From an uncultured Candidatus Saccharibacteria bacterium (GTDB taxonomy: Bacteria > Patescibacteriota > Minisyncoccia > Phycocordibacterales > Zambryskibacteraceae): a stretch of 64,000 nt of DNA. Under the pieces are notes generated by a model that saw only the letters and a program-made list of their open reading frames with translations, did not search any database and was not told where the DNA came from. Made by a program: the position numbers and the translations under genes. The stretch covers positions 105,306-169,305 of the forward strand of contig CAYGIH010000001.1 of the NCBI GenBank assembly GCA_964349945.1, written 5' to 3'. Of this stretch, positions 3,421 through 36,428 are shown piece after piece. Positions within the stretch are counted from its first letter, which is position 1. Each line of letters opens with the position of its first letter.

Positions 3421-3695
3421 ACGTCTTTCATATTAGCACGTGTTCTCTATTAGAATATAGTAAATATAAAGGACAAAATTAAACACAAAAATTAGATAAT
3501 TTCAAATATCTTCAGTATTATTTTAAATGTGTTTACATATAGGTCTTTTATGAAAAGTTTATATTCCATATAAAGGACATTTGGTATATAAAGGACATAT
3601 CTATAAAATATGTTGAAAAATAAGGATATATTCAAAATTTGATTATTTCTCACCATATTGACAAGTTCATAAATAAACGTAATGTAAGAAAATCG

Positions 3696-7265: not shown

Positions 7266-9608
7266 GTGTATAATAAGGCAATGATTAAGGATTATGTACG
7301 GGCCGCCAATTATTTGAGCGCCATTCAGATTTATTTGTGGGACAATTTTTTATTAGAAAAACCTCTTAGTAGTGATGATATAAAGTCGAGGCTCCTGGGT
7401 CACTGGGGGACTTGTCCGGGGATTAACTTTGTTTATGCGCATTTGAATGACGTCATCATCAGGCACAAACAAGATATGATGTTTATATTGGGCCCAGGTC
7501 ACGGCTTCCCAGCACTTCAAGCCAATTTGTTTTTAGAAAAAACACTCGGGCAGTTTTATCCAGAAGCAACGCAAGATGAGAGTGGAATAAAATATTTGGC
7601 CAAAAATTTTAGCTGGCCGTACGGATTCCCAAGTCACTCAAATCCTGGTGCACCCGGAGTAATCCTTGAAGGTGGAGAACTTGGTTATTCGCTCTCTACT
7701 GCGTGGGGAACAGTTCTAGATAATCCTAAACTAATTACAGTTTGTCTTGTGGGTGATGGTGAAGCGGAGACAGGCGCACTCGCCACTTCGTGGCACCTTA
7801 GCAAATTTGTGGATCCAAAGACAAACGGAGCGGTTCTCCCAATTCTCCACTTGAATGGTTACAAGATCTCTGGACCAACAGTTTTTGGTCGAATGAATAA
7901 TGAAGAATTAAAGGAACTTTTCCATGGATACGGATACGAACCAATTATAGTCGATGGTGGAGATGATGAACTTTATGAAAGGATGCCTGTGGCACTTGAA
8001 ACTTGTTTAGAAAAAATAAAAAAACTTCAAACAGAAGGTAAGGCAGAAGAAGATTCTTATCCTAGGTTCCCTATGATTATTCTTCGAACCAAAAAAGGTT
8101 GGACAGGAGTGAAGGAATCCAGAGGCAGAAAGATTGAGGATAATGCCTTGGCCCATCAAGTGGTTTGTTCTCATGTGAAGAGTGACCCTGAAGAACTCAA
8201 ATCTGTTGAAGCTTGGCTTCGTTCATATAATTTCTCAGAATTGTTTGGTAAAGAAAATGGTTTTACTAAAAGCATCATAGATCTCATCCCACCACCGGAG
8301 CTTGCGATGGGGAACAACAAACACACTTTTGGTTTGAAATACACTGGTCAACCTCTCGACCTTCCAGATGCAGAAAGTTTAATGGAGGATGCGAGTGTCC
8401 CCGGGACTATGGGTTCAAGCAGTATGATCCGTATGTCTCTATATCTAAAGGAAGTTTTCAACAGAAACAAAGAGAGTAAAAATTTTCGCCTCATGTCTCC
8501 GGATGAAACTTATTCAAACAAACTCCAGGCGGTTTTCCCTGAGACCTCTCGAGCCTTTGCTGGACCGATAGAACCTTGGGACATCGACCTCTCACCAGAT
8601 GGACGAGTGATGGAAATGCTTTCTGAGCACTCGCTCCAAGGTTTAGCCCAAGGTTATATATTGACCGGACGACACGCAGTCTTCGCTTCTTATGAAGCCT
8701 TCGTCCAAGTGGTGTCTAGTATGGCAGATCAATATGCGAAGTTCCTCCACGTCGCCAGAGAGATACCTTGGAGAGGAGATATTCCTTCCCTCAATTATAT
8801 TTTGACCTCTAGTGGTTGGAGACAAGAGCACAATGGTTTCTCTCACCAGAATCCAGGCTTCATTGATGCAATGCTCCAAAAGCAAGGATGTTTTGTGAAG
8901 GTTTTCTTCCCACCAGACGGAAACACCGCACTTGCAGTACTTGAACAATGTCTAAAGTCTAAAAATGAAATCAACTTAATTGTGGCTGGTAAGACTGTTG
9001 AACCAAGGTGGCTCGATGAGAAGTTAGTGAAGCAGGAACTCCAGTCGGGGTTAATGACTTGGGACTTCGCCAGTGATGAAAATCCTGATTTGATTTTCTC
9101 TGCTGCTGGAGAGTATCTGACCAAAGAAGCTCTCGCTGCCATGATGATAATTCGAGAGAAATTACCCGAAGTTAAACTACGCTATGTGAACATTTTGGAG
9201 ATCTCAGCTATAGGTATAGGCAACTCAATGTGTAAGGTGCCCATGCAGTCATTCAATGATTATTATATGGAGGACAAGCCTGTTATCTTTAATTTCCACG
9301 GTTATCCAGAGACACTCAAGCAGGTTTTGTTTGATCACCAAGATGGTAAGAACAGATTTTATGTTCATGGTTATACAGAAAATGGTTCGACCACCACACC
9401 ATTTGATCTTCACCTTAGGAATAAAACCAGTCGCTATGATTTGGCCATTGAAGCCTTTAGAATCTTGGCCGAAAGGAATCTTATCTCTACTGCAGAAGCA
9501 GAACAGTTGATCGAAGAATTCACTCGCAAGATATCTGCTCATCATGAATATATTGTGAAGAATGGAGTGGACCCAGAAGAAATTAATAATTGGAAGTGGC
9601 AAAGATAA
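7266..9608 (+). CDS. xfp: xylulose-5-phosphate/fructose-6-phosphate phosphoketolase
   Basis: 780 aa. Signature motifs GHWGTCPG…GPGHG…EGGELGYSLS, with a TPP-binding fold. Confidence 0.85.
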   Translation: MYNKAMIKDYVRAANYLSAIQIYLWDNFLLEKPLSSDDIKSRLLGHWGTCPGINFVYAHLNDVIIRHKQDMMFILGPGHGFPALQANLFLEKTLGQFYPEATQDESGIKYLAKNFSWPYGFPSHSNPGAPGVILEGGELGYSLSTAWGTVLDNPKLITVCLVGDGEAETGALATSWHLSKFVDPKTNGAVLPILHLNGYKISGPTVFGRMNNEELKELFHGYGYEPIIVDGGDDELYERMPVALETCLEKIKKLQTEGKAEEDSYPRFPMIILRTKKGWTGVKESRGRKIEDNALAHQVVCSHVKSDPEELKSVEAWLRSYNFSELFGKENGFTKSIIDLIPPPELAMGNNKHTFGLKYTGQPLDLPDAESLMEDASVPGTMGSSSMIRMSLYLKEVFNRNKESKNFRLMSPDETYSNKLQAVFPETSRAFAGPIEPWDIDLSPDGRVMEMLSEHSLQGLAQGYILTGRHAVFASYEAFVQVVSSMADQYAKFLHVAREIPWRGDIPSLNYILTSSGWRQEHNGFSHQNPGFIDAMLQKQGCFVKVFFPPDGNTALAVLEQCLKSKNEINLIVAGKTVEPRWLDEKLVKQELQSGLMTWDFASDENPDLIFSAAGEYLTKEALAAMMIIREKLPEVKLRYVNILEISAIGIGNSMCKVPMQSFNDYYMEDKPVIFNFHGYPETLKQVLFDHQDGKNRFYVHGYTENGSTTTPFDLHLRNKTSRYDLAIEAFRILAERNLISTAEAEQLIEEFTRKISAHHEYIVKNGVDPEEINNWKWQR

Positions 9609-9612
9609 ATCT

Positions 9613-10596
9613 ATGAAAATTTTAACTGTCAATGTAGGAAGTGAATCAAAGAAGTACACATTGTTTGTAGATGACAAAGAGATTTGGAATGTTCACATAG
9701 AGGAGCGTGATGGACAAATCGGAGAGGATAAATTAAATGAACAGTTTGATTGTATTGCCTTTCGAGTAGTGGCTCCGGGGACATATTTTAGGGAACACAG
9801 ACTAATAGGTGAGGAATTCTTTAGACAACTTACGGTGGCCAGGGAAAAGGCCCCCCTCCACATAGACAGAACTTTTATTGAGATACAGTTTTTCAAGAGT
9901 CGATTCCCTAATACTAAGATGGTGGCTATTTCTGATTCAGCCTTTCACTCGACCCTTCCTGACTATGCACGACTTTATGCCTTACCACTCGATGATGCTA
10001 AGAAGTTTGATATAGAACATTTTGGATACCACGGCATCTCACTCTCATCTATTGTTGAAAAATTGAAAGCAGAAAATAATTTGAAGGACAGAATTATTGT
10101 TTGTCACCTCGGCGGAGGTTCAAGCATTACAGCGATAAAGGAAGGTAAAAGTATTGATACCTCTATGGGCTTCACTCCACTTTCTGGTTTAACTATGGCG
10201 ACGAGGGTAGGGGAAATTGATGCTGGGGCACTTGTTTATCTCTCGGAAGTGAAAAATCTACACGGAGAAAGATTTGAAGAATATCTTGGTAATCAATGTG
10301 GCTTCCTAGGCTTCGCTGGGACTCCAAGTATGAAGCAACTACTTGATGAAGAAAAGACAAATGAAAGGGCAGAGCAAGTTATAAGGATGTTTGTCTATCA
10401 AGTGCAGAAATATATTGGGGCTTATGCTGTGGCACTTGGTGGTTTGGATTTATTGGTTTTCTCCGGAGGCATCGGTGAACCATCTGAGCCTATCCGCTCA
10501 AAAATTCTTGCTGGTATTGGTGCTCTAAAGGAAAATGTTTTAGTTGTGCCTACGGACGAAGCAGGGGAGATGAATAGAATTGCAAAGGGGATATAA
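9613..10596 (+). CDS. ackA: acetate kinase (short form)
   Basis: MKILTVNVGSESKKY… resembles the ILVLNCGSSS N-terminus. HLGGGSSITAIKEGKSIDTSMGFTPLSGLTMATRVGEIDAG is the acetate/propionate kinase signature. Immediately downstream of xfp. Confidence 0.8.
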   Translation: MKILTVNVGSESKKYTLFVDDKEIWNVHIEERDGQIGEDKLNEQFDCIAFRVVAPGTYFREHRLIGEEFFRQLTVAREKAPLHIDRTFIEIQFFKSRFPNTKMVAISDSAFHSTLPDYARLYALPLDDAKKFDIEHFGYHGISLSSIVEKLKAENNLKDRIIVCHLGGGSSITAIKEGKSIDTSMGFTPLSGLTMATRVGEIDAGALVYLSEVKNLHGERFEEYLGNQCGFLGFAGTPSMKQLLDEEKTNERAEQVIRMFVYQVQKYIGAYAVALGGLDLLVFSGGIGEPSEPIRSKILAGIGALKENVLVVPTDEAGEMNRIAKGI

Positions 10597-21631: not shown

Positions 21632-22810
21632 TTATAAGGCAATATGTTTGAGGTATTCAACTAATTGGGGTGCAGCTATTGTTTCTTGGGCACGGGTTGA
21701 GATGTTCCTAATAGTAACTGTATTATCTAAAGCTTCTTTTTGACCTAAGATTAAGAGATACGGGACTCTGCAACTTTCTGCACTACTGAGCTGGGCAGTA
21801 AGTTTGTCTCTGCCCAGGAAATGGTGAACCGGTATGTGATTAGAACGAAGAAGTTCTATAAGAGGCAAGGCTTTGAGTTTGGCTTCACATCCAAGCTGGA
21901 TGAGATAAAACTTGGGTTTAGGGAGGTCATTATAAACCTTTTTCATACTCTCTTTTTCTTGTCTCTTTTTGTTGTCAAAAACTGTGATGGAAACAGCTGG
22001 CAACTCCTTCTTAAAACCAACTTTTTTTGTGAGGCGAGAATATCTTGAACCAGAAGCGAGCAAGCTCTCGTCTTCGAGGTCTCGTATGGCGAAGATGGTG
22101 TGGGAATTATATTTCGGATTTCCTATGAGGGTATGCGCAAGTCTAAACTCTACATTTAAATGCTCGAGGCATTCGAGCATCTCTTTAAAATGAGCTCTAG
22201 AGGAGGCAGTGAGAGAGGCAATAGATGGGGGAATGTGAGTGTATGTGTTTTCAGGTAAATTTATTTTTAACAATTCAAACACATTGTCTTTTAATCTTTT
22301 CTTATGTTCTGCATCAAGATCACAAGCAATCTTCTTCGTATAGTTTGAAAGCTCTCGTTCGTAAGAAGCGATAGAATCCTTGTCTCCGATAGTATTAATT
22401 TCTACAACTAATTTTTTGTATCCAATTTCCTCGAGTATTGAAAGGGCGGTACGGATGAGGATGGCTTCGGCTATAGCCTGAGGGAAGCCAAGGATATGCA
22501 AACAATAATCATGGGTGCGTTTGCCCGGCTCAGATCTCCTATAAGCTATGGACAGAGGGTGAGGGAGAGAGGTGAAATTTTTTTCTGTATAGGTTCTCAA
22601 AAGAGCAGCTTTCTCTGCAGCATCGTGCCAAACTTTTTCTTCTCCAAAAGTTTTCAATTCTTCTGTTTGTTTAAGGTCTGCATCAGTAACTTTTGGGCCT
22701 TCTGTGGGGATAAAACCAAAATGAGAAGCAATATAAAGAGGCTTATCGAATTCTTTGAGCAAATATGATGGTCTGTCTTTAGTTTGTTTGGACATTTGTG
22801 GTAGTGGCAC
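21632..22810 (-). CDS. histidyl-tRNA synthetase-like class II aaRS paralog (HisRS/HisZ family, motifs partly degenerate)
   Basis: Motif-2-like AYRRSEPGKRTHDY, motif-3-like SGSRYSRLTKKVGFKKELPAVSI, and a C-terminal anticodon-binding-domain-like region (…ILGQKEALDNTVTIRNISTRAQE…). Confidence 0.5.
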   Translation of the reverse strand: MPLPQMSKQTKDRPSYLLKEFDKPLYIASHFGFIPTEGPKVTDADLKQTEELKTFGEEKVWHDAAEKAALLRTYTEKNFTSLPHPLSIAYRRSEPGKRTHDYCLHILGFPQAIAEAILIRTALSILEEIGYKKLVVEINTIGDKDSIASYERELSNYTKKIACDLDAEHKKRLKDNVFELLKINLPENTYTHIPPSIASLTASSRAHFKEMLECLEHLNVEFRLAHTLIGNPKYNSHTIFAIRDLEDESLLASGSRYSRLTKKVGFKKELPAVSITVFDNKKRQEKESMKKVYNDLPKPKFYLIQLGCEAKLKALPLIELLRSNHIPVHHFLGRDKLTAQLSSAESCRVPYLLILGQKEALDNTVTIRNISTRAQETIAAPQLVEYLKHIAL

Positions 22811-23414
22811 TTTCTGTTTTTATTTCACTGCCTGGCCAAATGTTGAAAGGCCAGAGTCGCACGATTGGTCTACCTATGAAATTCTCTCGAGGCACTGGTC
22901 CCCAAATTCTTGAATCAGCACTACCAGCGCGATTGTCTCCCATGACCCAATATTCACTCGCACTCAAGGTATAAGAAGAATTGTCTATCTTGGGAAGTTT
23001 TATATAAGGCTCGTTTAGGGTGAAGCCTTTTGGATTGTCATTGTTCACAATAGTGACTTTGCCATCTTTCACATTAACAGTTTCTCCAGGGAGACCAATG
23101 ATTCTTTTTATAAAGTATTTAGATGGATCTTTTGGGTACTTGAATATGAGGACAGAACCACGTTCAGGTAGATTGAAGCGATAACTAATCTCATCCACTA
23201 TTAAGTATTGGCCGTCTTTAAACGTTGGATCCATTGAGGCCCCATCTACTATGAAAGGTTGAGCGATATAGAGTCTAAAGGGTATGACAATAAAGACAGC
23301 AATCAGAGCAAGTTTCAACCATTCGTTCCAGTCTCCCAAAAATGATTCTTTCTTCTCTGTTTTTGTTTGCTGAAGTTCATCCATAATTTGTAGCATTGTA
23401 TTATTTAACTTCAT
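22779..23414 (-). CDS. lepB: signal peptidase I
   Basis: GASMDPTF (catalytic Ser box), GDNRAGSADSR (box E), N-terminal transmembrane segment. Start chosen at MKLNN…. Confidence 0.85.
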   Translation of the reverse strand: MKLNNTMLQIMDELQQTKTEKKESFLGDWNEWLKLALIAVFIVIPFRLYIAQPFIVDGASMDPTFKDGQYLIVDEISYRFNLPERGSVLIFKYPKDPSKYFIKRIIGLPGETVNVKDGKVTIVNNDNPKGFTLNEPYIKLPKIDNSSYTLSASEYWVMGDNRAGSADSRIWGPVPRENFIGRPIVRLWPFNIWPGSEIKTESATTTNVQTN

Positions 23415-23430
23415 TTGACACAATAGACAC

Positions 23431-23958
23431 ATGTATATCGTTGTTGGATTAGGAAATCCTGGAGAGGAATATGTGAACACCAGACACAATGCTGGGCGTT
23501 TGGCAATTGCTTATTTAGAAAAAAAAGAACCCAAGGGGGTGAAGTTTGTGCATCTTGATACTTTTATGAATAAATCAGGAAGCGGGGTAGCAAAAGTTAT
23601 TAAGTCAAAGAAAGCTGCAGAAAAACTTGTAGTTATTTATGATGATTTGGATTTGGCTCTAGGAACAATGAAGGTTTCTTATAACCGAGGCTCTGGTGGA
23701 CACAAGGGGATTGAGTCAATTGTAAGGGCATTAAAAACAGAAGCGTTTATTCGTATTCGTATAGGTACTTCCCCAAGTACTCCAAGCGGAAAGTTGAAGA
23801 AACCTCAAGGTGAGAAGGCTGTAGAGAAACATATTTTGACTGATTTCAAAAAACCAGAAATAGATACCTTAAAGAAAGTTTTCAAAAAACTCGAACCAAC
23901 CCTCGAAGCCCTCGTTGAATCTGGCCTCCAAAAAGCTATGACTGTTGGCAACAGCTAA
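23431..23958 (+). CDS. pth: peptidyl-tRNA hydrolase
   Basis: MYIVVGLGNPGEEYVNTRHNAG… 175 aa. Confidence 0.9.
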   Translation: MYIVVGLGNPGEEYVNTRHNAGRLAIAYLEKKEPKGVKFVHLDTFMNKSGSGVAKVIKSKKAAEKLVVIYDDLDLALGTMKVSYNRGSGGHKGIESIVRALKTEAFIRIRIGTSPSTPSGKLKKPQGEKAVEKHILTDFKKPEIDTLKKVFKKLEPTLEALVESGLQKAMTVGNS

Positions 23959-27094: not shown

Positions 27095-27421
27095 ATGAAA
27101 AAATATATTTCAGAGATTCATACCAAATCTCCAGAGCACAAAAAAAAGTTTGCACTTCTGGTTTCAGCGGGTATCACTCTTGTTATTTTTGGAGTTTGGG
27201 CTTTTGTGAAATTTAACGACCTTGCAAACAAGCCGGTAGTAGCAGAAAATAAACAACCAATAATAGAGGAAATAACTCCGATTTCAAATATTACTGATGG
27301 TATAGCTAACTCACTTGAAGCGATAAAAACTACTGCAGTTGATTTAAAAAGTAGTTTTGAAGAAGTAAATTTACAAAATCAAAATGGTAAGATAGATACA
27401 AGGAACACTAATGGCCAGTAA
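27095..27421 (+). CDS. hypothetical membrane-anchored protein
   Basis: Single N-terminal transmembrane segment ([19 protein letters not shown]). Overlaps the gyrA start by 11 nt. Confidence 0.4.
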
Positions 27422-29882
27422 AGATATTAAAAAAGAAGACAATGTGACTCCGCCAACTCGAGAGAGTGCGGTTATTTCTCGTTCTATAGTCACAGAGATG
27501 AAAGAATCGTTTATTGACTATGCGATGTCCGTGATTACTGATCGTGCCCTTCCTGATGTTCGAGATGGATTAAAGCCTGTGCACCGTCGCATTTTGTTCT
27601 CCATGAATGAGAAAGGTTTGACCGCGAGTGCCAAGAGTCGCAAGTCAGCCACAGTAGTCGGAGATGTGCTTGGTTCGTATCACCCACACGGCGACGCTTC
27701 TGTTTATGATGCGATGGTTAAGCTTGCTCAAGATTTCTCTACTCGTTACCCACTCATCATTGGTCAAGGTAACTTCGGTTCTATAGATGGAGACGGTGCA
27801 GCTGCATATAGGTACACCGAGGCTAAAATGAGCAAACTTTCGAGTGAGCTGTTGGCTGATATAGAAAAGAACACAGTCGATTTCAAGGCCAACTACGATG
27901 GCACAAAAAAGGAACCAACTGTCTTACCTTCAGCACTTCCTAACTTACTTTTGAACGGTACTCTTGGAATTGCAGTCGGAATGGCCACGAATATTCCTCC
28001 ACACAACCTCACCGAAGTAATTGATGCGACGGTCAAACTTATAGATGAGCCAAGTTCAACAACAGAAGATTTACTTGAATCAGTTAAAGGTCCAGATTTT
28101 CCAACTGGCGGTATTATTTTTAACCAAAAAGAAATTCATCATGCTTATGCGACTGGTCGAGGAGGTATAGTCACTCGTGGAGTTGCAGATATCCAAGAAA
28201 ACAAAGCAGGCAATTTTCAAATTATCATTACGGAGATTCCTTATAGAGTAAACAAAGCCACTCTCATAGAGAAAATTGCTGATTTAATTCGAGAGAAAAA
28301 GATTGAAGGTATCAAGGGTCTCAGAGATGAATCAACTAAGGATATTCGTATAGCCATTGATCTTAAAACTGGCTCTCAACCCCAAAAGATTCTTAATTCA
28401 CTCTACAAATACACTCAACTCGAAGATACTTTCCATGTGAACATGGTCGCTCTGGTGGATGGGGTCCCTCAAACGTTGTCTTTGAAGACAATGCTCCAAG
28501 AATTTATTAAACATAGGCAGGTGGTGGTAAAGCGCCGAGCCGAATTTGATTTGGAAAAAGCACTTGCGCGTGAACACATCCTTCTTGGACTTTCTAAGGC
28601 ACTCGACCATATAGAGGAAGTCATCAAAATTATTCGTGCTTCAAAGTCAGTTGAAGATGCGAAGGCTAACCTCATGAAGAGATTTAAATTCTCTGACCTT
28701 CAGGCGAATGCTATCCTTGAAATGCGTCTTCAGAAATTGGCTGGTTTGGAGAGAAAGAAAGTTGAAGATGAACTCAAGGAAGTACAAGCGCTCATAGAAG
28801 AACTCAAGACTCTTTTGGCCTCTGCGAAGAAAATGCTTGCTGTGGTTAAAACAGAATTAATCGCTGCCAGGGAAAAATATGGAGACGATAGACGCACAAA
28901 AGTGATAAAGGGAGGGGCAAAAATACTTTCTGTAGAAGATATGATTGCAGATGAAGAAAACGCACTCGTTCTAACTTCTGGTGGATATATCAAACGAACT
29001 AATCCAGATGAATACAAGAAACAAAAACGCGGAGGAGTTGGAGTGGTAGATTTGGACACTAAAGAAGAAGATTTCGTCACTCATTTCCTCACCGCTTCAA
29101 CTCATTCTGATTTACTCTTCTTCACAGATAAAGGTAAGGCCTACCAAATCAAGATGTATGACATCCCAGAAGGCAAACGAGCCACAAAAGGTAAATCTAT
29201 AATGAATTTCATATCTCTTTCTGATGATGAGAAGATTACTTCTATTTTGCCTATGTCTAAGGAAGCAAAGAATATTGAAGGAGCACTCCTAATGGTCACT
29301 GAACAGGGTACAGCCAAAAAAGTTGATGCCAAGTCATTCCATGATGTCCGTTCATCAGGAATTATAGCCATCAAATTAGCCACAGGAGATAAACTTGTTT
29401 CTGTGTCTTTGGTTATCAAGGGAGATGATGCCACTATTGTGACCAAGGACGGTCAATCTATAAGGTTTAAGGAATCTGATATAAGGGAAATGGGACGTGG
29501 TGCCGCTGGAGTTCGAGGGATTAAACTTTCTAAAGGAGACAAAGTAGTGGGTGCTCATGAGATAAAGAAAGAGTGGAAGGATGCACACCTCCTTGTAATT
29601 TCTGCCAACGGTTATGGTAAACGTACAGAACTTTCTGAATATAAGGTTCAAGGCAGAGGCGGCTCAGGTATTTTGACTTCAAAGGTGACGAGCAAAACAG
29701 GCAATGTGATGGCCTCACAAATTGTGACTGAGGAAAGTGAAGAGGTGGTGGCAATTTCAAAGAAATCTCAAGTAGTTCGGGTGGATATAAAAGAAATTCC
29801 AGTTCTCGGTCGTCAGACTCAAGGAGTTCGCATCATGAAGCTCCGTGATGGTGATACCCTCGCATCAGTTATTTGTTTGTAG
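27411..29882 (+). CDS. gyrA: DNA gyrase subunit A
   Basis: [25 protein letters not shown] (includes the active-site Tyr region), C-terminal beta-pinwheel repeats. 823 aa. Confidence 0.95.
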
Positions 29883-29897
29883 TGGTACAATTAACAT

Positions 29898-30434
29898 ATG
29901 TTTTCTGATCCAGAAGAGAATGTTCATGAATTTGGATTCCTTGCAGGACAAGCTGTGGCGGATTTTGGTTCTGGGGCAGGGCACTATACCTTCGCACTAT
30001 CTAGAGTTCTTGGCCCAAATGGTCGGGTCTTTGCGGTGGATATCCAAGAGGAAATGCTCACACATTTATCCATTGAACTCAAAAAAAATAATATTGAAAA
30101 TGTGCGGGTAGTACTAGGAGATGTAGAAAAGATAGAAGGAACACATTTGAAGGATGATTATGTAGATGGAGTGGTTTTCTCAAATATCCTTTTTCAACTT
30201 AGAGATAAAGAAAGCGCAGTAAATGAGGCTTTTAGAATTCTAAAATCTGGAGGACGAGTCTGTATTGTTGAATGGCACGACCTTTCATTTTTGGCTGGGG
30301 TCAAAAGTGCTGGCAAAAAAGTAGTGGTCACAGAAGCAGAGGCTAGAAATTTATTTCAAGGAGTTGGCTTTAAATTCGAAAGGGTTTTCGAAGCCGGAGA
30401 TCATCACTACGGTCTCATTTTTAAAAAACCCTAG
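29898..30434 (+). CDS. class I SAM-dependent methyltransferase (small)
   Basis: VADFGSGAGHYT…VFAVDIQEEML…GGRVCIVEW resemble methyltransferase motifs I, II and post-I. Confidence 0.65.
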   Translation: MFSDPEENVHEFGFLAGQAVADFGSGAGHYTFALSRVLGPNGRVFAVDIQEEMLTHLSIELKKNNIENVRVVLGDVEKIEGTHLKDDYVDGVVFSNILFQLRDKESAVNEAFRILKSGGRVCIVEWHDLSFLAGVKSAGKKVVVTEAEARNLFQGVGFKFERVFEAGDHHYGLIFKKP

Positions 30435-30466
30435 TCATACGACCAAGTAGTGGTAGAATAATATAA

Positions 30467-31750
30467 ATGTCCAAGTTTCAATTAATCCTTCTTTCAATCT
30501 TCGGAGCCTTTATTGTGATAGGAGTTATCGCGTTTTCAATGTCCAAAGGCGGAGGCGTATCTTCAACTACTACTGTCATCTGGGGAGACATCGCAGGAGA
30601 TGCCTTTAATAGGACGATTACTGGTCTTGGAGGAGGAGATACTGGTTTGCCTCGTATTCAATATGTTTATAAACCAGCGGACACCTTTTCTGCTGATTTG
30701 ACTGAAGCCATAGCTACAGGCAGTGGACCAGATTTGGTTATTATGAGCATCTCTGGTATAGAAAAAAACAAAAATAAAATATTAGTTATCCCTGAATCAA
30801 GTTTGAGTCAAGGTGATTTTAAGAACACCTTTATCCAAGAAGGAGAACTACTTGTGACCGCTGGTGGTGTTTATGGATTGCCTCTTGTGGTTGATCCAAT
30901 GGTGCTTTATTGGAATAGAGATTTGTTTGATAAGGCTGCCCTTGTCGCACCCATCGAGTATTGGGACAAGATATATGATGATGCGGTAAAACTTACAGAA
31001 AAGGATACAGCCGGCAATATTAAAAAGAGCGCCATCGCAATGGGGGAAACAAAAAATATCCTCAATAGCAAAAGCATCATGACTCTTCTCCTTCTTCAGG
31101 CCGGTTCCCCTATTACTCTTTTCCAAAACGATAGACATTATGCAGTTTTGACTGAGAGATTTAACCTACCACTGTTACCCGCAGCAGCAGCTATAGATTT
31201 TTATACCCAATTTGCCAACCCAACAAAACGCTTTTATACGTGGAACTCTTCTCTCTTACCAGCTCAAACCTCTTTCACCTCAGGTAATTCCGCGATGTAT
31301 TTAGGTTTTGCCAGTGAGTTAGGGATATTAAAAGCCAAGAATCCGACTTTGAATTTAGGAGTGGCATTGGTTCCTCAATCTCGTGTATCAGATAAGAAGA
31401 TTACTTTTGGGAAGCTTGAAGCGGTGGCCGTGCTCAAGAGTAGCAAGAATATTACAGGTGCCTTTAGTTCGGCGATGAATATTGTGTCCAAAGACAATGC
31501 TTCAACTCTTACAAATACAATTTCACTTCCTCCTGCAAGGAGAGATTTACTCGCAGTACCTCCAAACAATTATTTCCAATCAATATTTTATACAGCTGCT
31601 ATTCAATCCAGAGGTTGGCTTGATCCAGATGAGAAGAAGACAACAACTATCTTTGCAGATATGATTGATGGAGTGACTTCTGGTCGAGCTAATACCCAAG
31701 AGGCTATCAATGTAGCTAATACAGCTATTGATTCACTTATAAACCCATAA
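30467..31750 (+). CDS. membrane-anchored extracellular solute-binding protein (ABC-type, family 1-like)
   Basis: N-terminal transmembrane anchor and an SBP-like core (…GLPLVVDPMVLYWNRDLFDKAAL…). No adjacent permease genes. Confidence 0.5.
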   Translation: MSKFQLILLSIFGAFIVIGVIAFSMSKGGGVSSTTTVIWGDIAGDAFNRTITGLGGGDTGLPRIQYVYKPADTFSADLTEAIATGSGPDLVIMSISGIEKNKNKILVIPESSLSQGDFKNTFIQEGELLVTAGGVYGLPLVVDPMVLYWNRDLFDKAALVAPIEYWDKIYDDAVKLTEKDTAGNIKKSAIAMGETKNILNSKSIMTLLLLQAGSPITLFQNDRHYAVLTERFNLPLLPAAAAIDFYTQFANPTKRFYTWNSSLLPAQTSFTSGNSAMYLGFASELGILKAKNPTLNLGVALVPQSRVSDKKITFGKLEAVAVLKSSKNITGAFSSAMNIVSKDNASTLTNTISLPPARRDLLAVPPNNYFQSIFYTAAIQSRGWLDPDEKKTTTIFADMIDGVTSGRANTQEAINVANTAIDSLINP

Positions 31751-32151
31751 TGAAAAGAATATATCCACAAATAATTGCGACTTTAATACTAACTGTGGTT
31801 GTTTTGATTCCATATACAGTCTCAGCTCAGTTTGGAAATTTTATAAAATGTGGGGATGACCCAGTCGCAAATCCTTGCGAGTTCAATGATTTAGTTACTT
31901 TGGTCACTGATGTAATCAATGGTCTCATTAAACTAGCCACTCTCATCACCACTGGAGTTTTGGCATACGCAGGATTTAAAATGATTTTCTCTGGTGGAGA
32001 TGAGGGTGCGTATAAAGATGCGAAGGAGATGGCCCTGAAGACGGTTAAGGGTTATTTGTGGATACTGGTGGCCTGGACTCTGGTTTATACTATAACCAAT
32101 GTGCTGCTTGATCCAAATAATTACACTAATTTATTAGGTAGCCCAAATTAA
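31750..32151 (+). CDS. small secreted two-TM protein, pilin-like (TrbC/VirB2/T4SS-pilin-like), paralog 1
   Basis: Sec signal peptide (…YTVSA|QFG), a Cys pair in the N-terminal region, and two hydrophobic helices separated by a charged loop. Confidence 0.5.
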   Translation: MKRIYPQIIATLILTVVVLIPYTVSAQFGNFIKCGDDPVANPCEFNDLVTLVTDVINGLIKLATLITTGVLAYAGFKMIFSGGDEGAYKDAKEMALKTVKGYLWILVAWTLVYTITNVLLDPNNYTNLLGSPN

Positions 32152-32519
32152 TGAAAAAATTTATTCCTTCAGTGCTTGCGTTTGTTTTCTTGGCTGGTAT
32201 ATCTGTGACACTTTTGAATGTTCATGCAGCAGTTGATGCTGGGGCAAAGTTAGATAATCCATTCAGGACAGGGGGAAACCTTGAGGAGCTCTTTGTGATG
32301 ATTCTAAACAACGTAGTCGTACCTATTGGAGCAGTGGCTGTGGTTGTTGGTTTTATTTATACAGGATTTCTATTTGTGCAGGCACAAGGCAGTGAAAAGG
32401 AATTACCTAAAGCCAGAGAAGCATTAAAAAATACCGTTATTGGGGCCATCATCCTATTAGGAGCAGGAGTAATAGCTAGCGTTATAGGTAATACTATTAA
32501 TCAGCTTAGAACACCATGA
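32151..32519 (+). CDS. small secreted two-TM pilin-like protein, paralog 2
   Basis: Signal peptide (…LLNVHA|AV), NPFRTGGNLEELF, and two transmembrane helices with a GSEKELPKAREALK loop. Confidence 0.5.
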   Translation: MKKFIPSVLAFVFLAGISVTLLNVHAAVDAGAKLDNPFRTGGNLEELFVMILNNVVVPIGAVAVVVGFIYTGFLFVQAQGSEKELPKAREALKNTVIGAIILLGAGVIASVIGNTINQLRTP

Positions 32520-32818
32520 CCACCGACCCAAGGAATTTCACACAAATAGTTGGTTCAATACTTGATTTGATTTCTTTGGCTGTGCCGGTGCTTGCTGGGG
32601 CGGCTTTGTTAGTGTTCTTTTGGGGGTTGGTGAAGTTTATTTGGAAATCAGGGGATGAAGCCAGTCATGAAGAAGGCAAAAATTTGATGAAATGGGGGAT
32701 TATCGCTTTATTTATAATGGTTTCTTATGTAAGCATAGTGCAATTTCTATACATAGGTTTTGGCTTCGGTGATGGTAATAGTTTTGGTATACCCCAACTA
32801 CCCACTAACAATAGGTAA
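32516..32818 (+). CDS. small two-TM pilin-like protein, paralog 3 (no signal peptide)
   Basis: Shares FFWGLVKFIWKSGDE…KNLMKWGIIALFIMVS with paralogs 4 and 5. Confidence 0.5.
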   Translation: MTTDPRNFTQIVGSILDLISLAVPVLAGAALLVFFWGLVKFIWKSGDEASHEEGKNLMKWGIIALFIMVSYVSIVQFLYIGFGFGDGNSFGIPQLPTNNR

Positions 32819-32819
32819 T

Positions 32820-33203
32820 ATGAAAAAGTATTTTAGTTCAATTGTTTTACTTACATTAAGTAGTGTTCCTGTTCAAGTTTTTGGGGCGACCAGAGGATTT
32901 AGAGAAGTTTTACTTGAAGCGCAAGGGATTATAGATAAGTCAGTCATTATTGTTGTTGGGTTGGCTATTTTAGCTTTGTTTTGGGGTTTAGCAAAGTTTA
33001 TATGGAAATCTGGAGAAAGTGACTATGTAGAAGGGTTAAATATTATCAAATACAGTATTTTGGCAATTTTTATTATGGTTTCTATTTGGAGCATTGTTGG
33101 ATTTTTACAAACAGGCTTTGGTTTGGAGCCTACGACTACTATCGGAGAAAGTGCTCCGTGTTATGACCCATTTGGTCGTCCTACCGGTAATCCCGGTTGC
33201 TAG
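32820..33203 (+). CDS. small secreted two-TM pilin-like protein, paralog 4
   Basis: Start at MKKYF (signal peptide). LFWGLAKFIWKSGESDYVEGLNIIKYSILAIFIMVS. C-terminal Cys pair. Confidence 0.5.
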   Translation: MKKYFSSIVLLTLSSVPVQVFGATRGFREVLLEAQGIIDKSVIIVVGLAILALFWGLAKFIWKSGESDYVEGLNIIKYSILAIFIMVSIWSIVGFLQTGFGLEPTTTIGESAPCYDPFGRPTGNPGC

Positions 33204-33308
33204 TTGGTTATTCCTCCACAGCTGTTGTTAGTGCTTGTTTATATTTGGGGTATAATATAGTACATACCATTTATAGGTATATTAAAATTAATTTCAATAT
33301 TCTACACA

Positions 33309-33655
33309 TGAAAAGATTCTTAGTTATTGGTCTCGCAGCAGTTCCAGCTATTGCGTTTGGTGCGTCAACCAGCGGGTTTGACTCGTTCTTGAATTCAGTA
33401 AAGGGAACAGTAGACAAACTCATTCCTTTCCTAGTTGGTCTTGCTCTTTTAGGATTTTTCTGGGGTTTGGTAAAATTTATCTTCCAAGGTAACAAGGATG
33501 AAGATAGTAGAACAGAGGCAAAGAACATGATGATTTATGCCATCATTGCTCTATTCGTTATGACAGCAGTTTGGGGGCTCGTAGGATTCCTAGGCACTGC
33601 AATAGGTATTGATCAAGGAGGATCAGTTAACCTTCCAAGAACTCCATCTCTATAA
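33309..33655 (+). CDS. small secreted two-TM pilin-like protein, paralog 5
   Basis: Start at MKRFLVIG (signal peptide …AFG|AS). FFWGLVKFIFQGNKDEDSRTEAKNMMIYAIIALFVMT. Confidence 0.5.
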
Positions 33656-33660
33656 TCTAA

Positions 33661-33939
33661 ATGGCAGCAGCAGAGATTACCATTGTGCCTTTCCTGCATA
33701 AGGTTAATGCTGTGATTCTAAATCCAGTCATTAAACTTGCGTTCGCTATAGCCATTTTGATTTTCTTTTATGGCATCTTCGAGTTTATACAAAAAGAAAC
33801 AGGAGATAAAGATAGAGAGAAAGGTAAGGATAAGATAAAATGGGGGCTCGTAGGGATGCTTATAATGTTTAGTGCTTATGGCATCATAAATCTCATATTA
33901 GGGACGTTCAATTTCCCGAAGCCGGATATCCTCCCTTAG
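33661..33939 (+). CDS. small two-TM pilin-like protein, paralog 6
   Basis: FFYGIFEFIQKETGDKDREKGKDKIKWGLVGMLIMFS has the same architecture as the others. Confidence 0.45.
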   Translation: MAAAEITIVPFLHKVNAVILNPVIKLAFAIAILIFFYGIFEFIQKETGDKDREKGKDKIKWGLVGMLIMFSAYGIINLILGTFNFPKPDILP

Positions 33940-34006
33940 GATTACAAAATAACTCCCAAACGGGAGTTTTTTGTAATAGAGGAAGTATAAGTGCTAAGAT
34001 AAATAT

Positions 34007-35845
34007 ATGAAATTCAATGTACAGGAGGACAACTACACCCTTCAGGGGTTTTTAAATTTCTCAAAATTATTAAAAACTCTAAAAAAATCAATTGATTTTG
34101 TTTCTAGATATGAAAGCAAAAATCTTCTTATATTGATTCTATTAGCCACAATTTCTGCTGTTGTTCCATATCTTCAGAATGGACTTTTTGGCAAGCTTAT
34201 AGACGCAACCATTGAATACAAGAACACTGGTTTGGGTTTAAGAGGGATTTTAATCACAGTAGCTTTTTTGATTGGTGTGACCATCCTTCCAAATATTATA
34301 GGTTTAATAAAAAGTTTTGTTAGTTCAAATTTTAGATTTAATACCTTAAGGAATTTAAATTTATATTTTCTCAAAAAAATAAGTACTTTTGATATAGCTA
34401 CGATTGAGAACACTGAATATCAAGAATTAACTCAAAAGGCTGGCGAGAGAGGTCATGGCAGCATTTATGATTTTATCAGATTTTCTATTGATAATTATTC
34501 AAATTTTATTGGTGTTTTAGTGTCGTTTATTATTTTGGGTTTTATAGATAGGACCTTATTAATTTATGCTTTTGTTGGTTCTCTTCCTGCTCTTTATGTT
34601 CAGCTTAGATATGGCAAGGATATTTTTTGGATATGGGATTTAAACTCCAGCAATAGAAGAAAATTCTTTAAAAGAAGAGGCTATTTTACTGGTGTGGTGT
34701 CACTCACAGAGATGAAATTGTATCAATTGGCCAAGAGATTTTTGTCAGAAATTACTAAATTACATGATTGTTTTGATGATGAACTAAAACAAGCAGAAAA
34801 AAGCAAACTCGGATGGGAATTGTTTGCCCTGACTGTATTCGGACTATTTCTAGGACTTGGAGTGTGGAGGATTGTTCATCTGACCCTTATAGGCCAACTT
34901 TTAATCGGACAAATGCTCTTCGCATATACTACCTATAGAGGTTTCAAGGGCACTCTATCAGAATTTTTTAGACAAATTGGTTGGATGACTGAGTTTGGAA
35001 ATTATGCCAGATATTGGTTTCAAATTGATGATATTAAACCTAAAATACAAAATATTCGCAACGCAGAAAAAGTTGATTTTAGAAAAGATCCTCCAAGGAT
35101 AGAATTCAAAAACGTATCATTTAAGTATGATGAAAAAGGGGAAAAATTAGCGCTGGATGATTTATCTTTCATTATTGAACCAGGAGAGAAATTGGCTATT
35201 GTTGGTTTAAGTGGAGCGGGGAAGACTACTTTAATTAAATTGCTTTGTCGTATATATGATCCAAATCAAGGGCAAATATTGATTAACGGGAGGGATTTGA
35301 AAGAGATTGATTTGGAATCATGGCACAGACAACTCGGTGTATTGTTCCAAGATTTCGTAGATTATGAATTTAAGGTAAAAGAGGTGATTGCGTTCGGTAA
35401 TTCTGAGATTACCCCAACTGACAAAAATATCGAGAAGGCTGCCAAAATGGCCAAGGCAAATGTCTTCATTGAAAGATTACCTAAAAAATACGATCAGCTT
35501 TTATGGAAGGGTTTTGAGGATGGAGTTAGTTTGTCCAAAGGAGAGAAACAACGTATGGCCTTGGCCAGAGTGCTTTATAGAGAGTCTCCAATCACTATTT
35601 TAGATGAACCAACTGCCTCTGTGGATGCCCTTTCTGAACAAGAAATTTTTGATACTTTAGAGAATCTTCCAAAGAATAAAACAGTTATTCTCATTTCTCA
35701 TAGATTCAGCACAGTAAAAAATACAGATAAAATTTTGGTAATTGAATATGGCAAGCTTATTGAACAAGGAAACCATACTAAATTAATGAAAGAAAAAGGT
35801 CGATATTCTGAGCTGTATAAAATTCAAGCTGAAAGCTATAAATAA
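34007..35845 (+). CDS. ABC exporter, fused transmembrane-domain plus ATPase half-transporter (MsbA/type I exporter-like)
   Basis: Six N-terminal transmembrane helices, Walker A GLSGAGKTT, signature LSKGEKQR, Walker B ILDEPTASVD. No peptidase C39 domain. Confidence 0.8.
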   Translation: MKFNVQEDNYTLQGFLNFSKLLKTLKKSIDFVSRYESKNLLILILLATISAVVPYLQNGLFGKLIDATIEYKNTGLGLRGILITVAFLIGVTILPNIIGLIKSFVSSNFRFNTLRNLNLYFLKKISTFDIATIENTEYQELTQKAGERGHGSIYDFIRFSIDNYSNFIGVLVSFIILGFIDRTLLIYAFVGSLPALYVQLRYGKDIFWIWDLNSSNRRKFFKRRGYFTGVVSLTEMKLYQLAKRFLSEITKLHDCFDDELKQAEKSKLGWELFALTVFGLFLGLGVWRIVHLTLIGQLLIGQMLFAYTTYRGFKGTLSEFFRQIGWMTEFGNYARYWFQIDDIKPKIQNIRNAEKVDFRKDPPRIEFKNVSFKYDEKGEKLALDDLSFIIEPGEKLAIVGLSGAGKTTLIKLLCRIYDPNQGQILINGRDLKEIDLESWHRQLGVLFQDFVDYEFKVKEVIAFGNSEITPTDKNIEKAAKMAKANVFIERLPKKYDQLLWKGFEDGVSLSKGEKQRMALARVLYRESPITILDEPTASVDALSEQEIFDTLENLPKNKTVILISHRFSTVKNTDKILVIEYGKLIEQGNHTKLMKEKGRYSELYKIQAESYK

Positions 35846-35849
35846 TTAT

Positions 35850-35933
35850 TGGTGCCGGGGAGAGGACTTGAACCTCCATGAGTTGCCTCGCTAGTTCCTA
35901 AAACTAGTGCGTCTACCATTTCGCCACCCCGGC
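35850..35933 (-). tRNA. tRNA-Leu (anticodon TAG), CCA encoded
   Basis: The reverse complement reads GCCGGGGTGGCGAAATGGTAGAC…CTAGT-TTTAGGA-ACTAG, a long variable arm, …GGTTCAAGTCC…CCCCGGCACCA. Confidence 0.8.
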
Positions 35934-35938
35934 AGTGA

Positions 35939-35990
35939 ACTTGTGCGCCCGAACTACGTCCTGGGCGACTTCGCTCGGAGATATCCAAAA
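35939..35990 (-). repeat. partial duplicate of the tRNA-Lys 3' end / tRNA-like fragment
   Basis: cttgtgcgccc at 35939-35949 repeats 36014-36024. The fragment gcgcccgaactacgtcctgggcga forms a T-arm-like hairpin. Confidence 0.4.
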
Positions 35991-36018
35991 GTAAACTTTT
36001 GTCTACCTCACTCGCTTG

Positions 36019-36091
36019 TGCGCCCAGTAGGAGTCGAACCTACGACCATCTCCTTAAGAGGGAGCTGCTCTACCAGCTGAGCTATGGGCGC
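36019..36091 (-). tRNA. tRNA-Lys (anticodon CTT)
   Basis: The reverse complement reads GCGCCCATAGCTCAGCTGGTAGAGC…CTCTTAA…GGTTCGACTCC…TGGGCGC-A. Confidence 0.65.
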
Positions 36092-36158
36092 TCGAATGTA
36101 GAGTATCGCAAATTTCTGACGATTTTTCAATCGTTTTATGATAATGTAGATTCTGTTC

Positions 36159-36229
36159 GGCCTAGTAGCCAAGTGGTAAGGCACGGCTCTGCAAAAGCTT
36201 CATCGGCGGTTCGATTCCGCCCTAGGCCT
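36159..36229 (+). tRNA. tRNA-Cys (anticodon GCA)
   Basis: GGCCTAG…GCCAAGTGGTAAGGC…CTGCAAA…GGCGG-TTCGATT-CCGCC-CTAGGCC-T. Confidence 0.7.
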
Positions 36230-36265
36230 CCCGAACAGTTTGTGTTTATAATAACTGTGAGGCAC

Positions 36266-36351
36266 GCCCAGGTGGTGGAATGGTATACACGGAGGACTTA
36301 AAATCCTCTGGTCGCAAGACCTTGTGGGTTCGAGTCCCACCCTGGGCACCA
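36266..36351 (+). tRNA. tRNA-Leu (anticodon TAA), CCA encoded
   Basis: GCCCAGG…GAGGA-CTTAAAA-TCCTC, long variable arm, GTGGGTTCGAGTCCCAC-CCTGGGC-ACCA. Confidence 0.85.
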
Positions 36352-36353
36352 GC

Positions 36354-36424
36354 GCGAGGTTAGTTTAGTGGTAGAACTGGTGCTTCCCAAGCATCGGGCG
36401 CGAGTTCGATTCTCGCACCTCGCA
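36354..36424 (+). tRNA. tRNA-Gly (anticodon CCC)
   Basis: GCGAGGT…GGTGC-TTCCCAA-GCATC…GCGAG-TTCGATT-CTCGC-ACCTCGC-A. Confidence 0.8.
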
Positions 36425-36428
36425 CCGA

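Follow-up and report, generated by a model that had tools for sequence, protein, structure and literature searches.

The subject of this study is a 64-kb stretch of contig CAYGIH010000001.1 (hereafter the window, whose positions serve as coordinates; features lie on the + strand unless stated otherwise), which is a housekeeping stretch of a Minisyncoccia/Paceibacteria (candidate phyla radiation, CPR) chromosome and in which a gene for a membrane-anchored solute-binding protein (SBP) is followed by six small open reading frames (ORFs) and a gene for an ABC exporter. Our analysis led to the conclusion, held with considerable confidence, that this locus represents the Paceibacteria form of the Patescibacterial VirB2-like T4SS_pilin array, i.e. 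a unit that extends from the SBP gene to a terminator-like hairpin, carries pilins of four classes that would be subunits of a type IV secretion system (T4SS) encoded elsewhere, and has no relation to the exporter. This kind of object has already been published for Patescibacteria, and the existence of such arrays is not new.

Six members of the T4SS_pilin family

Profile searches support the assignment of the six small proteins to the Patescibacterial T4SS_pilin family (PF18895), as all six scored above its gathering cut-off of 26.6 bits, three of them by 1–2 bits only. Together with the SBP gene, the six genes are:

30467–31750, + strand: predicted membrane-anchored MalE-like (CUT1-type) SBP, 427 amino acids (aa); first gene of the conserved operon
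31750–32151, + strand: predicted pilin type 1, 133 aa; PF18895 27.4 bits; signal peptide, Cys pair C34/C43, two transmembrane helices
32151–32519, + strand: predicted pilin type 2, 122 aa; PF18895 28.2 bits; signal peptide and two transmembrane helices
32516–32818, + strand: predicted pilin type 3, 100 aa; PF18895 36.7 bits; no signal peptide, two transmembrane helices, FFWGL motif
32820–33203, + strand: predicted pilin type 4, 127 aa from ATG; PF18895 28.0 bits; signal peptide, two transmembrane helices, variable C-terminal tail with Cys pair
33308–33655, + strand: predicted pilin type 5, 115 aa from ATG; PF18895 39.1 bits; signal peptide, two transmembrane helices, FFWGL motif
33661–33939, + strand: predicted pilin type 6, 92 aa; PF18895 31.1 bits; no signal peptide, two transmembrane helices

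The first-pass annotation had described six consecutive same-strand genes at 31750–33939 coding for pilin-like proteins of 92–152 aa, and the ORFs were indeed found on the + strand at these coordinates, with the family reading and the lower end of the size range upheld. The upper end had to be corrected, since the 147-aa and 152-aa versions of pilins 4 and 5 depend on upstream TTG starts. The ATG starts at 32820 and 33308 are favoured by orthologs and gene packing, with pilin 4 orthologs starting 1–2 nucleotides (nt) past the pilin 3 stop, and the resulting length range is 92–133 aa.

Hydropathy analysis revealed two hydrophobic helices in each of the six proteins, as initially described, and an extra N-terminal signal-peptide-like segment in pilins 1, 2, 4 and 5, which matches the predicted four signal peptides and is missing in pilins 3 and 6. 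A conserved block (FFWGL...K/W G...ALF[IV]M), noted at first in three or four members, was located in pilins 3–6, while the cysteine pairs reported for two members correspond to C34/C43 of pilin 1, situated before the first helix, and C114/C127 of pilin 4. Pairwise identity among the six paralogs amounts to 22–45%.

The pilin-like reading is further consistent with sub-threshold matches to TrbC/VirB2 (PF04956; pilin 1 at 21.2 bits and pilin 2 at 20.3 bits, E 3e-4 to 7e-4, the next at 14.8 bits) and to NF045849, the Mbov_0395 pilin-like conjugal transfer protein of a Mycoplasma integrative and conjugative element (ICE), for which pilin 6 reached 37.2 bits against a cut-off of 40 bits (E 1.7e-9) and the other pilins 19–21 bits. 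When a six-pilin profile was compared with PDB sequences, the pKM101 pilin TraM was the sole match (E 0.32). A homology search with pilin 5 returned 119 proteins, all of them PF18895 members and some carrying the NCBI name 'pilin', and when a library of 1.84 billion was searched with the six-pilin profile, 36,527 cluster representatives matched at E ≤ 1e-3.

Organization of the operon

The reading frames are joined very tightly. TAATG links the SBP gene to pilin 1 and pilin 1 to pilin 2, pilins 2 and 3 share an ATGA overlap, and pilin 4 starts 1 nt past pilin 3. In related loci the distance from the SBP stop to the first pilin start is typically −4 to about +30 nt, and overlaps of −4 or −1 nt are frequent. 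Three signals accompany these genes:

30432–30459, + strand: promoter-like TAGTCA-16 nt-TG-TAGAAT from a consensus scan, 8 nt 5' of the SBP start codon
33251–33279, + strand: conserved element preceding pilin 5, made up of a −10-like TATAAT and, after it, the inverted repeat ATACC-N7-GGTA
33951–33974, + strand: intrinsic-terminator-like hairpin, AACTCCCAAACGGGAGTT plus T run, which ends the pilin operon

As promoter-like sites are no commoner in the window than in shuffled sequence, the site at 30432–30459 constitutes weak evidence; a terminator-like stem lies close upstream at 30397–30416, within the 3' end of the methyltransferase gene that precedes the SBP gene. The element in the spacer between pilins 4 and 5 is kept in relatives down to about 46% SBP identity. 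Over 1.36 Mb, its pattern, TATAAT with ATACC-N3-8-GGTA(T), was matched a single time per locus on the coding strand of 40 loci, compared with 5 reverse-strand matches, and among the five pattern matches listed it stands ~30–80 nt upstream of a type-5 pilin gene. Because the spacer matched no Rfam family and showed no significant fold (z = +1.16), we favour a promoter-like reading of the element over a structured RNA, and it may represent an internal promoter, an operator or a 5' element. The transcription unit most likely runs from the SBP gene (30467) through pilins 1–4, the spacer element and pilins 5 and 6 to the hairpin at 33951. This hairpin is conserved after pilin 6 in L002, the closest relative, where tRNA-Leu(tag) follows it directly.

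The solute-binding protein and its linkage to the pilin genes

The description of the upstream gene product as a membrane-anchored SBP was confirmed by matches above threshold to SBP_bac_1 (PF01547, 57.5 bits) and SBP_bac_8 (PF13416, 51.6 bits) and by a single N-terminal transmembrane helix (residues 1–29 by hydropathy). An AlphaFold2 model (predicted local distance difference test, pLDDT, 88.2; predicted template modelling score, pTM, 0.84) places a helix at residues 3–27 and a disordered linker at 24–32 in front of a two-lobed alpha/beta body. The best Foldseek match of this model was the cyclo/maltodextrin-binding protein 2zyo (E 4e-23, TM-score 0.74/0.82), followed by sucrose/maltotriose-, manno-oligosaccharide- and sophoro-oligosaccharide-binding proteins and MalE, and PDB sequence hits agree. 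Judged by its predicted fold, the SBP is a MalE-like oligosaccharide binder. All of its relatives belong to Patescibacteria, namely to the Parcubacteria/Paceibacteria group (NCBI class Minisyncoccia), and the nearest is encoded in a Minisyncoccia metagenome-assembled genome (86% identity).

The cytoplasmic tail and the start of the anchor of the SBP (window 30467–30540; MSKFQ..LL..FG.F) match the ectodomain core in conservation, with the first 15 residues as conserved as the ectodomain motif DFYTQFAN, and this conserved N terminus hints at a specific membrane partner. The Pfam search of the window covered about 50 of its 66 ORFs with a length of 120 aa or more, and neither these scanned ORFs nor the Pfam-annotated related loci L031–L036 included an importer permease or ATPase for the SBP. 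Conservation of this degree in a tail and anchor is unusual for a simple tether.

For comparison, 29 genome loci were collected via the SBP, 80 metagenome loci via a pilin alignment and several more via exact-protein look-up, and their ORFs were annotated in six frames with purpose-built pilin, SBP and methyltransferase profiles. In every SBP-selected locus with downstream sequence (32/32), the SBP gene was followed at once by 3–7 same-strand pilin ORFs, and an SBP gene lay directly upstream of the array in each of the 40 pilin-selected loci whose sequence extended 1.5 kb or more beyond the first pilin on that side. The linkage thus held in 72 of 72 loci, over a range of SBP identity from 86% down to 22–27%. 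It was also kept where the flanking genes differ, as in the Moranbacteria-like loci L024 and L028 and in L030, in which the array is followed by hsp20-hrcA-grpE-dnaK. The link between the SBP and the pilins is therefore real and deeply conserved.

Subunit classes and selection

Typing of the related arrays against the six window proteins revealed a recurrent order of type 1, type 2, two to five genes of types 3, 4 or 5, and type 6, with 123556, 123356 and 123456 as the commonest strings. Related arrays contain 3–8 pilin genes, and type 6 is the last gene in most of the typed ones. For pilins 1, 2, 3, 5 and 6 the best hits were position-specific in relatives down to 36% SBP identity; pilin 1, for instance, has position-specific orthologs in L002, L007 and L015, and type 2 orthologs occupy array position 2. 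Structural traits follow the same division. At least two cysteines are present in 60 of 61 type-1 orthologs, a third hydrophobic segment is absent in 95 of 101 type-6 proteins and present in 72 of 78 type-2 proteins, and a leader accompanies types 2, 4 and 5 and is lacking in types 3 and 6. The six pilins are hence shown to comprise four old classes in fixed order, each with its own ortholog in distant relatives.

Selection was assessed as the ratio of nonsynonymous to synonymous substitution rates (dN/dS), using two relatives at ~95% GyrA identity as reference. Five pilin genes gave values of 0.03–0.16 (e.g. 0.09–0.16 for pilin 1, 0.08–0.13 for pilin 2 and 0.03–0.06 for pilin 3), and pilin 3 retained 86–91% identity in the two nearest relatives. 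In contrast, pilin 4 showed a dN/dS of 0.38–0.40 and only 52–56% identity, compared with 74–91% for its neighbours, which corresponds to a divergence three to four times that of the five other pilins. When it was compared by eye with the L002 ortholog, most changes were seen to affect the leader, the loop between the helices and the Cys-bearing C-terminal tail. All six pilins are under purifying selection, with pilin 4 as the fast-evolving member. The dN/dS values imply that these are real coding genes and dispose of the concern that they might be chance hydrophobic ORFs. The ordered four-class layout, taken together with the individual essentiality of the six pilin genes of Southlakia epibionticum (see below), speaks for subunits with specialised roles and against antigenic variants that could replace one another, and the behaviour expected of a variable family is confined to the middle pilin class.

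Larger members of the family were also encountered. Three of the top matches of the six-pilin profile (P0360, P0366 and P0387) are single polypeptides with 2–16 pilin domains, examples being a 335-aa protein with 3 domains, one of 820 aa that has 8 and one of 1,775 aa that has about 13–16, and the tandem array seems to have been fused into 'polypilins' in some lineages. In the Moranbacteria-like loci L024 (11223–15387), L025 and L028 (11327–15494), the first and the last pilin-domain proteins bear Cys-rich extensions of 250–350 aa composed of repeated C..G..C modules, and the product of the second gene combines two pilin domains.

Comparison with known systems

Using PF18895 and PF04956 on 3,035 genomes of Patescibacteria, Quinonero-Coronel et al. 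(2025) found VirB2-like pilins in 1,948 VirB4-bearing assemblies, in 1135 of which they lie near virB4 (about 20 genes); the same survey reported 441 arrays of 2–11 VirB2-like genes with a mean identity of 25% and a maximum of 54% (PMC12102498). In Southlakia epibionticum ML1, Wang et al. (2023) found that the T4SS cluster contains a run of predicted pilin genes that is essential: the six PF18895 genes SEML1_0014–0019, all of which scored as essential, adjoin genes resembling VirB4, PrgI and VirB6, and no binding protein is encoded next to them (PMC10633639). In enrichment cultures of Patescibacteria, T4SS pilins furthermore ranked with the genes of unknown function that are expressed most highly (PMC10936435).

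The window array shares with these published arrays the PF18895 assignment, the protein size, the two-helix build, the tandem same-strand arrangement, the low identity among paralogs and the chromosomal position outside any relaxase context, and it has the same number of genes as that of Southlakia. It differs from the latter in that no T4SS gene was found within 27–30 kb among the scanned ORFs and in its position downstream of gyrA, with the SBP gene and usually a methyltransferase gene upstream. A location within about 20 genes of virB4, which is typical of such arrays and not defining, was likewise not observed among the ORFs scanned. The first-pass annotation did not recognise the gene order as a known module. 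Pilin arrays as such were already described for Patescibacteria; three features of the Paceibacteria arrays, namely the constant SBP partner, the fixed order of classes and the internal element, were not found in the literature searched. Nor was a fast-evolving member described in the literature searched on pilin arrays, and the supplementary files of PMC12102498 that were searched contained no SBP or methyltransferase Pfam names near T4SS genes.

Compared with TrbC/VirB2 pilins (PF04956; pKM101 TraM, PDB 8cw4), the window proteins have in common the small size, the leader, the hydrophobic hairpin with a short polar loop and a weak sequence similarity. They deviate in their sub-threshold scores, in the lack of a leader in two of six, in the presence of six divergent copies instead of one major pilin, in the single-membrane host and in the absence of VirB5, VirB1 or a processing enzyme nearby. 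The Mycoplasma ICE proteins Mbov_0395/MMCAP2_0565 (NF045849) are likewise two-helix T4SS proteins, of ~80 aa and from a single-membrane bacterium, and here the pilin 6 match covers nearly the whole model. However, this match falls just under the cut-off, and the Mycoplasma gene is single and part of a mobile element, unlike the array in a housekeeping region described here.

Regarding the SBP, PrgZ/TraC of enterococcal conjugative plasmids provide an example of a membrane-anchored, pheromone-binding SBP that occurs with a Gram-positive-type T4SS and without permease genes of its own. PrgZ is an OppA-type peptide binder (SBP_bac_5) that is plasmid-borne and regulates conjugation, whereas the SBP of the window is chromosomal and, by its predicted fold, a MalE-like oligosaccharide binder. 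With the CUT1 importers (MalE with MalFGK2) it shares the fold and the Pfam families, and its best structural matches are all oligosaccharide binders; it differs from them in the absence of permease and ATPase genes alongside, both in the scanned window and in the annotated loci, and in its unusually conserved N-terminal helix anchor.

Functional assignment

By analogy with the published systems, the six proteins most likely function as subunits of a T4SS-associated pilus encoded elsewhere. All six would enter the cytoplasmic membrane, and the leader-bearing ones would do so via Sec and a signal peptidase, for which a gene is present at 22779–23489. Assembly would then fall to a VirB4-type machine whose genes lie elsewhere in the genome; in this class the usual place is near dnaA, where a VirB4-type T4SS has been reported for Paceibacteria. 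Within such an assembly, the pilins would represent non-redundant subunits, major and minor, of a heteromeric pilus or channel sheath, of which the exposed tail of pilin 4 would form the variable, host-facing part. The co-translated SBP may act as a host-facing accessory of the pilus apparatus that recognises a host-surface oligosaccharide or captures glycan.

Several observations weigh against this assignment. None of the pilins reaches the 27.9-bit threshold of the canonical TrbC/VirB2 family PF04956. The AlphaFold2 model of pilin 5, a helical hairpin with helices at 21–60 and 65–98 (pLDDT 74.5), retrieved only nonspecific helical hairpins from the PDB in Foldseek (best E 0.39), although the hairpin fold is too generic to speak for or against VirB2 membership. 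As the first-pass annotation had stated for VirB4, VirD4 and VirB6, none of these was found among the scanned ORFs of the 64-kb window, nor were TrsD or PrgI, and in related loci the large-ORF clusters that were tested, all from within 10 kb of an array, did not include VirB4. In addition, a Patescibacterial T4SS pilus has not yet been seen. As the scanned window ORFs include no T4SS gene, it is homology and the literature, and not this genome, that connect the pilins to a T4SS. Finally, part of the adjacency of SBP and pilins could reflect the high synteny of small genomes, and the SBP could serve an ABC importer encoded elsewhere.

The last two points, taken further, lead to the view that the adjacency is inherited gene order only and that the SBP belongs to an ordinary sugar importer and is functionally unconnected with the pilins. 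The synteny of the whole gyrA ... rbfA-infB-ClpB neighbourhood in many loci and the standard MalE-like fold of the SBP would fit such a scenario. Nevertheless, we regard it as unlikely, given that the unit of SBP and pilins, mostly with the methyltransferase, persists in L024, L028 and L030 with both flanks changed, that the stop-start overlaps of −4 or −1 nt recur, and that the linkage is without exception down to the lowest SBP identities.

It is also improbable, in our view, that the pilin-like proteins and the orphan SBP form a separate membrane complex without a T4SS, for example an unconventional device for glycan capture or uptake. The missing permease and ATPase partners in the scanned window and in L031–L036, the invariable presence of the SBP in an operon with the pilins, the lack of VirB4 among the large ORFs tested within 10 kb of the arrays and the conservation of the SBP tail and transmembrane start are all compatible with such a complex. 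On the other hand, the proteins are homologous to conjugative pilins, the six-gene array of Saccharimonadia lies inside a T4SS cluster and is essential likewise, and the operon encodes no energy source. Moreover, pilins located away from virB4 are common in VirB4-bearing genomes, as follows from the 1135/1948 proportion of nearby cases (PMC12102498). Assignment of the six proteins to a T4SS-associated pilus encoded elsewhere thus remains our preferred reading.

The downstream ABC exporter

The gene downstream of the hairpin encodes, as initially annotated, a 612-aa fused ABC exporter in which neither Pfam nor NCBIfam profiles revealed a C39 peptidase domain:

34007–35845, + strand: fused ABC exporter, 612 aa; ABC_tran 113.8 bits; MsbA-like, sub-threshold; no C39 domain

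Its sequence gives no significant match to ABC_membrane (PF00664), though six hydrophobic segments are predicted. Homologs show 59–72% identity in Paceibacterota, two lie at 50%, and a mix of Paceibacteria and Bacteroidota proteins follows at ~40%.

The first-pass annotation had placed the SBP, the six pilins and the exporter in one module, of which the SBP–pilin part is borne out by the related loci and the exporter part is not. A single export-coupled surface-filament or adhesin cassette would account for the eight co-directional, closely spaced genes of the window and for the recurrence of this arrangement in one close relative that was sampled twice (L035/L036), the only other place where the exporter adjoins the array. 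This explanation is very improbable: the terminator hairpin between pilin 6 and the exporter is conserved; L002 has no exporter and its array runs from the hairpin straight into tRNA-Leu; no exporter homolog stands beside the array in 31 further SBP-selected or 40 pilin-selected loci; and a 69%-identical ortholog in another Paceibacterota genome is located between aminoacyl-tRNA synthetase genes with no pilins nearby. For these reasons we exclude the exporter from the pilin operon and consider it a clade-specific neighbour situated between the terminator and tRNA-Leu, which removes a misleading lead.

The guanine-cytosine content of the exporter gene is 0.33, compared with 0.37–0.41 for its neighbours. 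A recent horizontal transfer between the window genome and L035 was considered and rejected, as the synonymous divergence (dS) of 1.3 is similar to that of neighbouring genes. With a dN/dS of 0.025 in the same comparison, the exporter is an old, constrained gene of a small clade and not a recent arrival. Five tRNA genes follow at 35850–36426 in a divergent cluster (Leu-tag and Lys-ctt on the − strand; Cys, Leu-taa and Gly-ccc on the + strand), which is conserved in L002 and marks the site of exporter presence or absence.

Least credible of all is the proposal that the six proteins are diversified secreted-peptide or bacteriocin-like precursors exported by the adjacent transporter: it is favoured by the tandem arrangement of small paralogous proteins, two of which have Cys pairs, and by the neighbouring exporter, and it is contradicted by the two full-length transmembrane helices of each protein, the PF18895 assignment, the stable orthologs of each paralog under purifying selection over wide distances, the missing C39 domain and the absence of the conserved exporter–precursor linkage that marks a peptide export cassette.

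Genomic neighbourhood

The operon belongs to a tight, co-directional string in which gyrA (27411–29882) is followed by the methyltransferase, the SBP, the six small ORFs and the exporter. Upstream of the SBP gene lies:

29898–30434, + strand: class I S-adenosylmethionine-dependent methyltransferase, 178 aa; Methyltransf_31/11/25 matches

In NCBIfam this protein gave ArsM/UbiE-like matches, all of them sub-threshold. Its gene stands directly 5' of the SBP gene in most SBP-selected loci and is missing in L007, L009–L012 and many metagenome loci; it is a frequent, not a universal, upstream neighbour of the operon.

The remainder of the window is filled with housekeeping genes, including those for isoleucyl-tRNA synthetase, TsaD, phosphoketolase, acetate kinase, FtsZ, FtsA, signal peptidase and S1, and further for IF2, ClpB, ParB, RelA, TopA, DprA, seryl-tRNA synthetase and others. 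An Hsp20 gene marks its left edge. A possible surface or host-contact protein of 847 aa, which combines He_PIG Ig-like repeats with a peptidoglycan-binding domain, is encoded at 3639–6182, and at 7266–10596 the phosphoketolase (XFP) gene is followed by that of acetate kinase, the two ORFs overlapping by ~45 nt in a compact fermentative module typical of CPR genomes. In two related loci, a DUF8128 (PF26449)-annotated protein is encoded upstream of yceG and gyrA (L033, 1–1167; L034, 154–1536). L033 is the complete Campbellbacteria genome CP064977.1, where this gene lies a few kb from the start of the record. The DUF8128 protein, considered as a possible T4SS part, had no match in NCBIfam.

Implications

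A more far-reaching interpretation, which we put forward as speculative and consider rather doubtful, holds that the Paceibacteria array has become detached from the T4SS genes and obligately coupled to a membrane-anchored, MalE-like glycan binder working within the pilus apparatus, with the four classes forming an ordered heteromeric filament whose fast-evolving member sets the host range. If true, the SBP could represent the missing host-recognition adhesin of Gram-positive-type T4SSs, or a receptor that passes host oligosaccharides to the pilus or the T4SS conduit.

The T4SS with its pilin array is the only such machinery on which the epibiotic lifestyle of a cultivated Patescibacterium has been shown to depend. 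For Paceibacteria, the largest and least studied class, the SBP that always accompanies the pilins, the order of the four classes and the fast subunit provide testable handles on this machinery, and pilin 4 emerges as a candidate determinant of host specificity.

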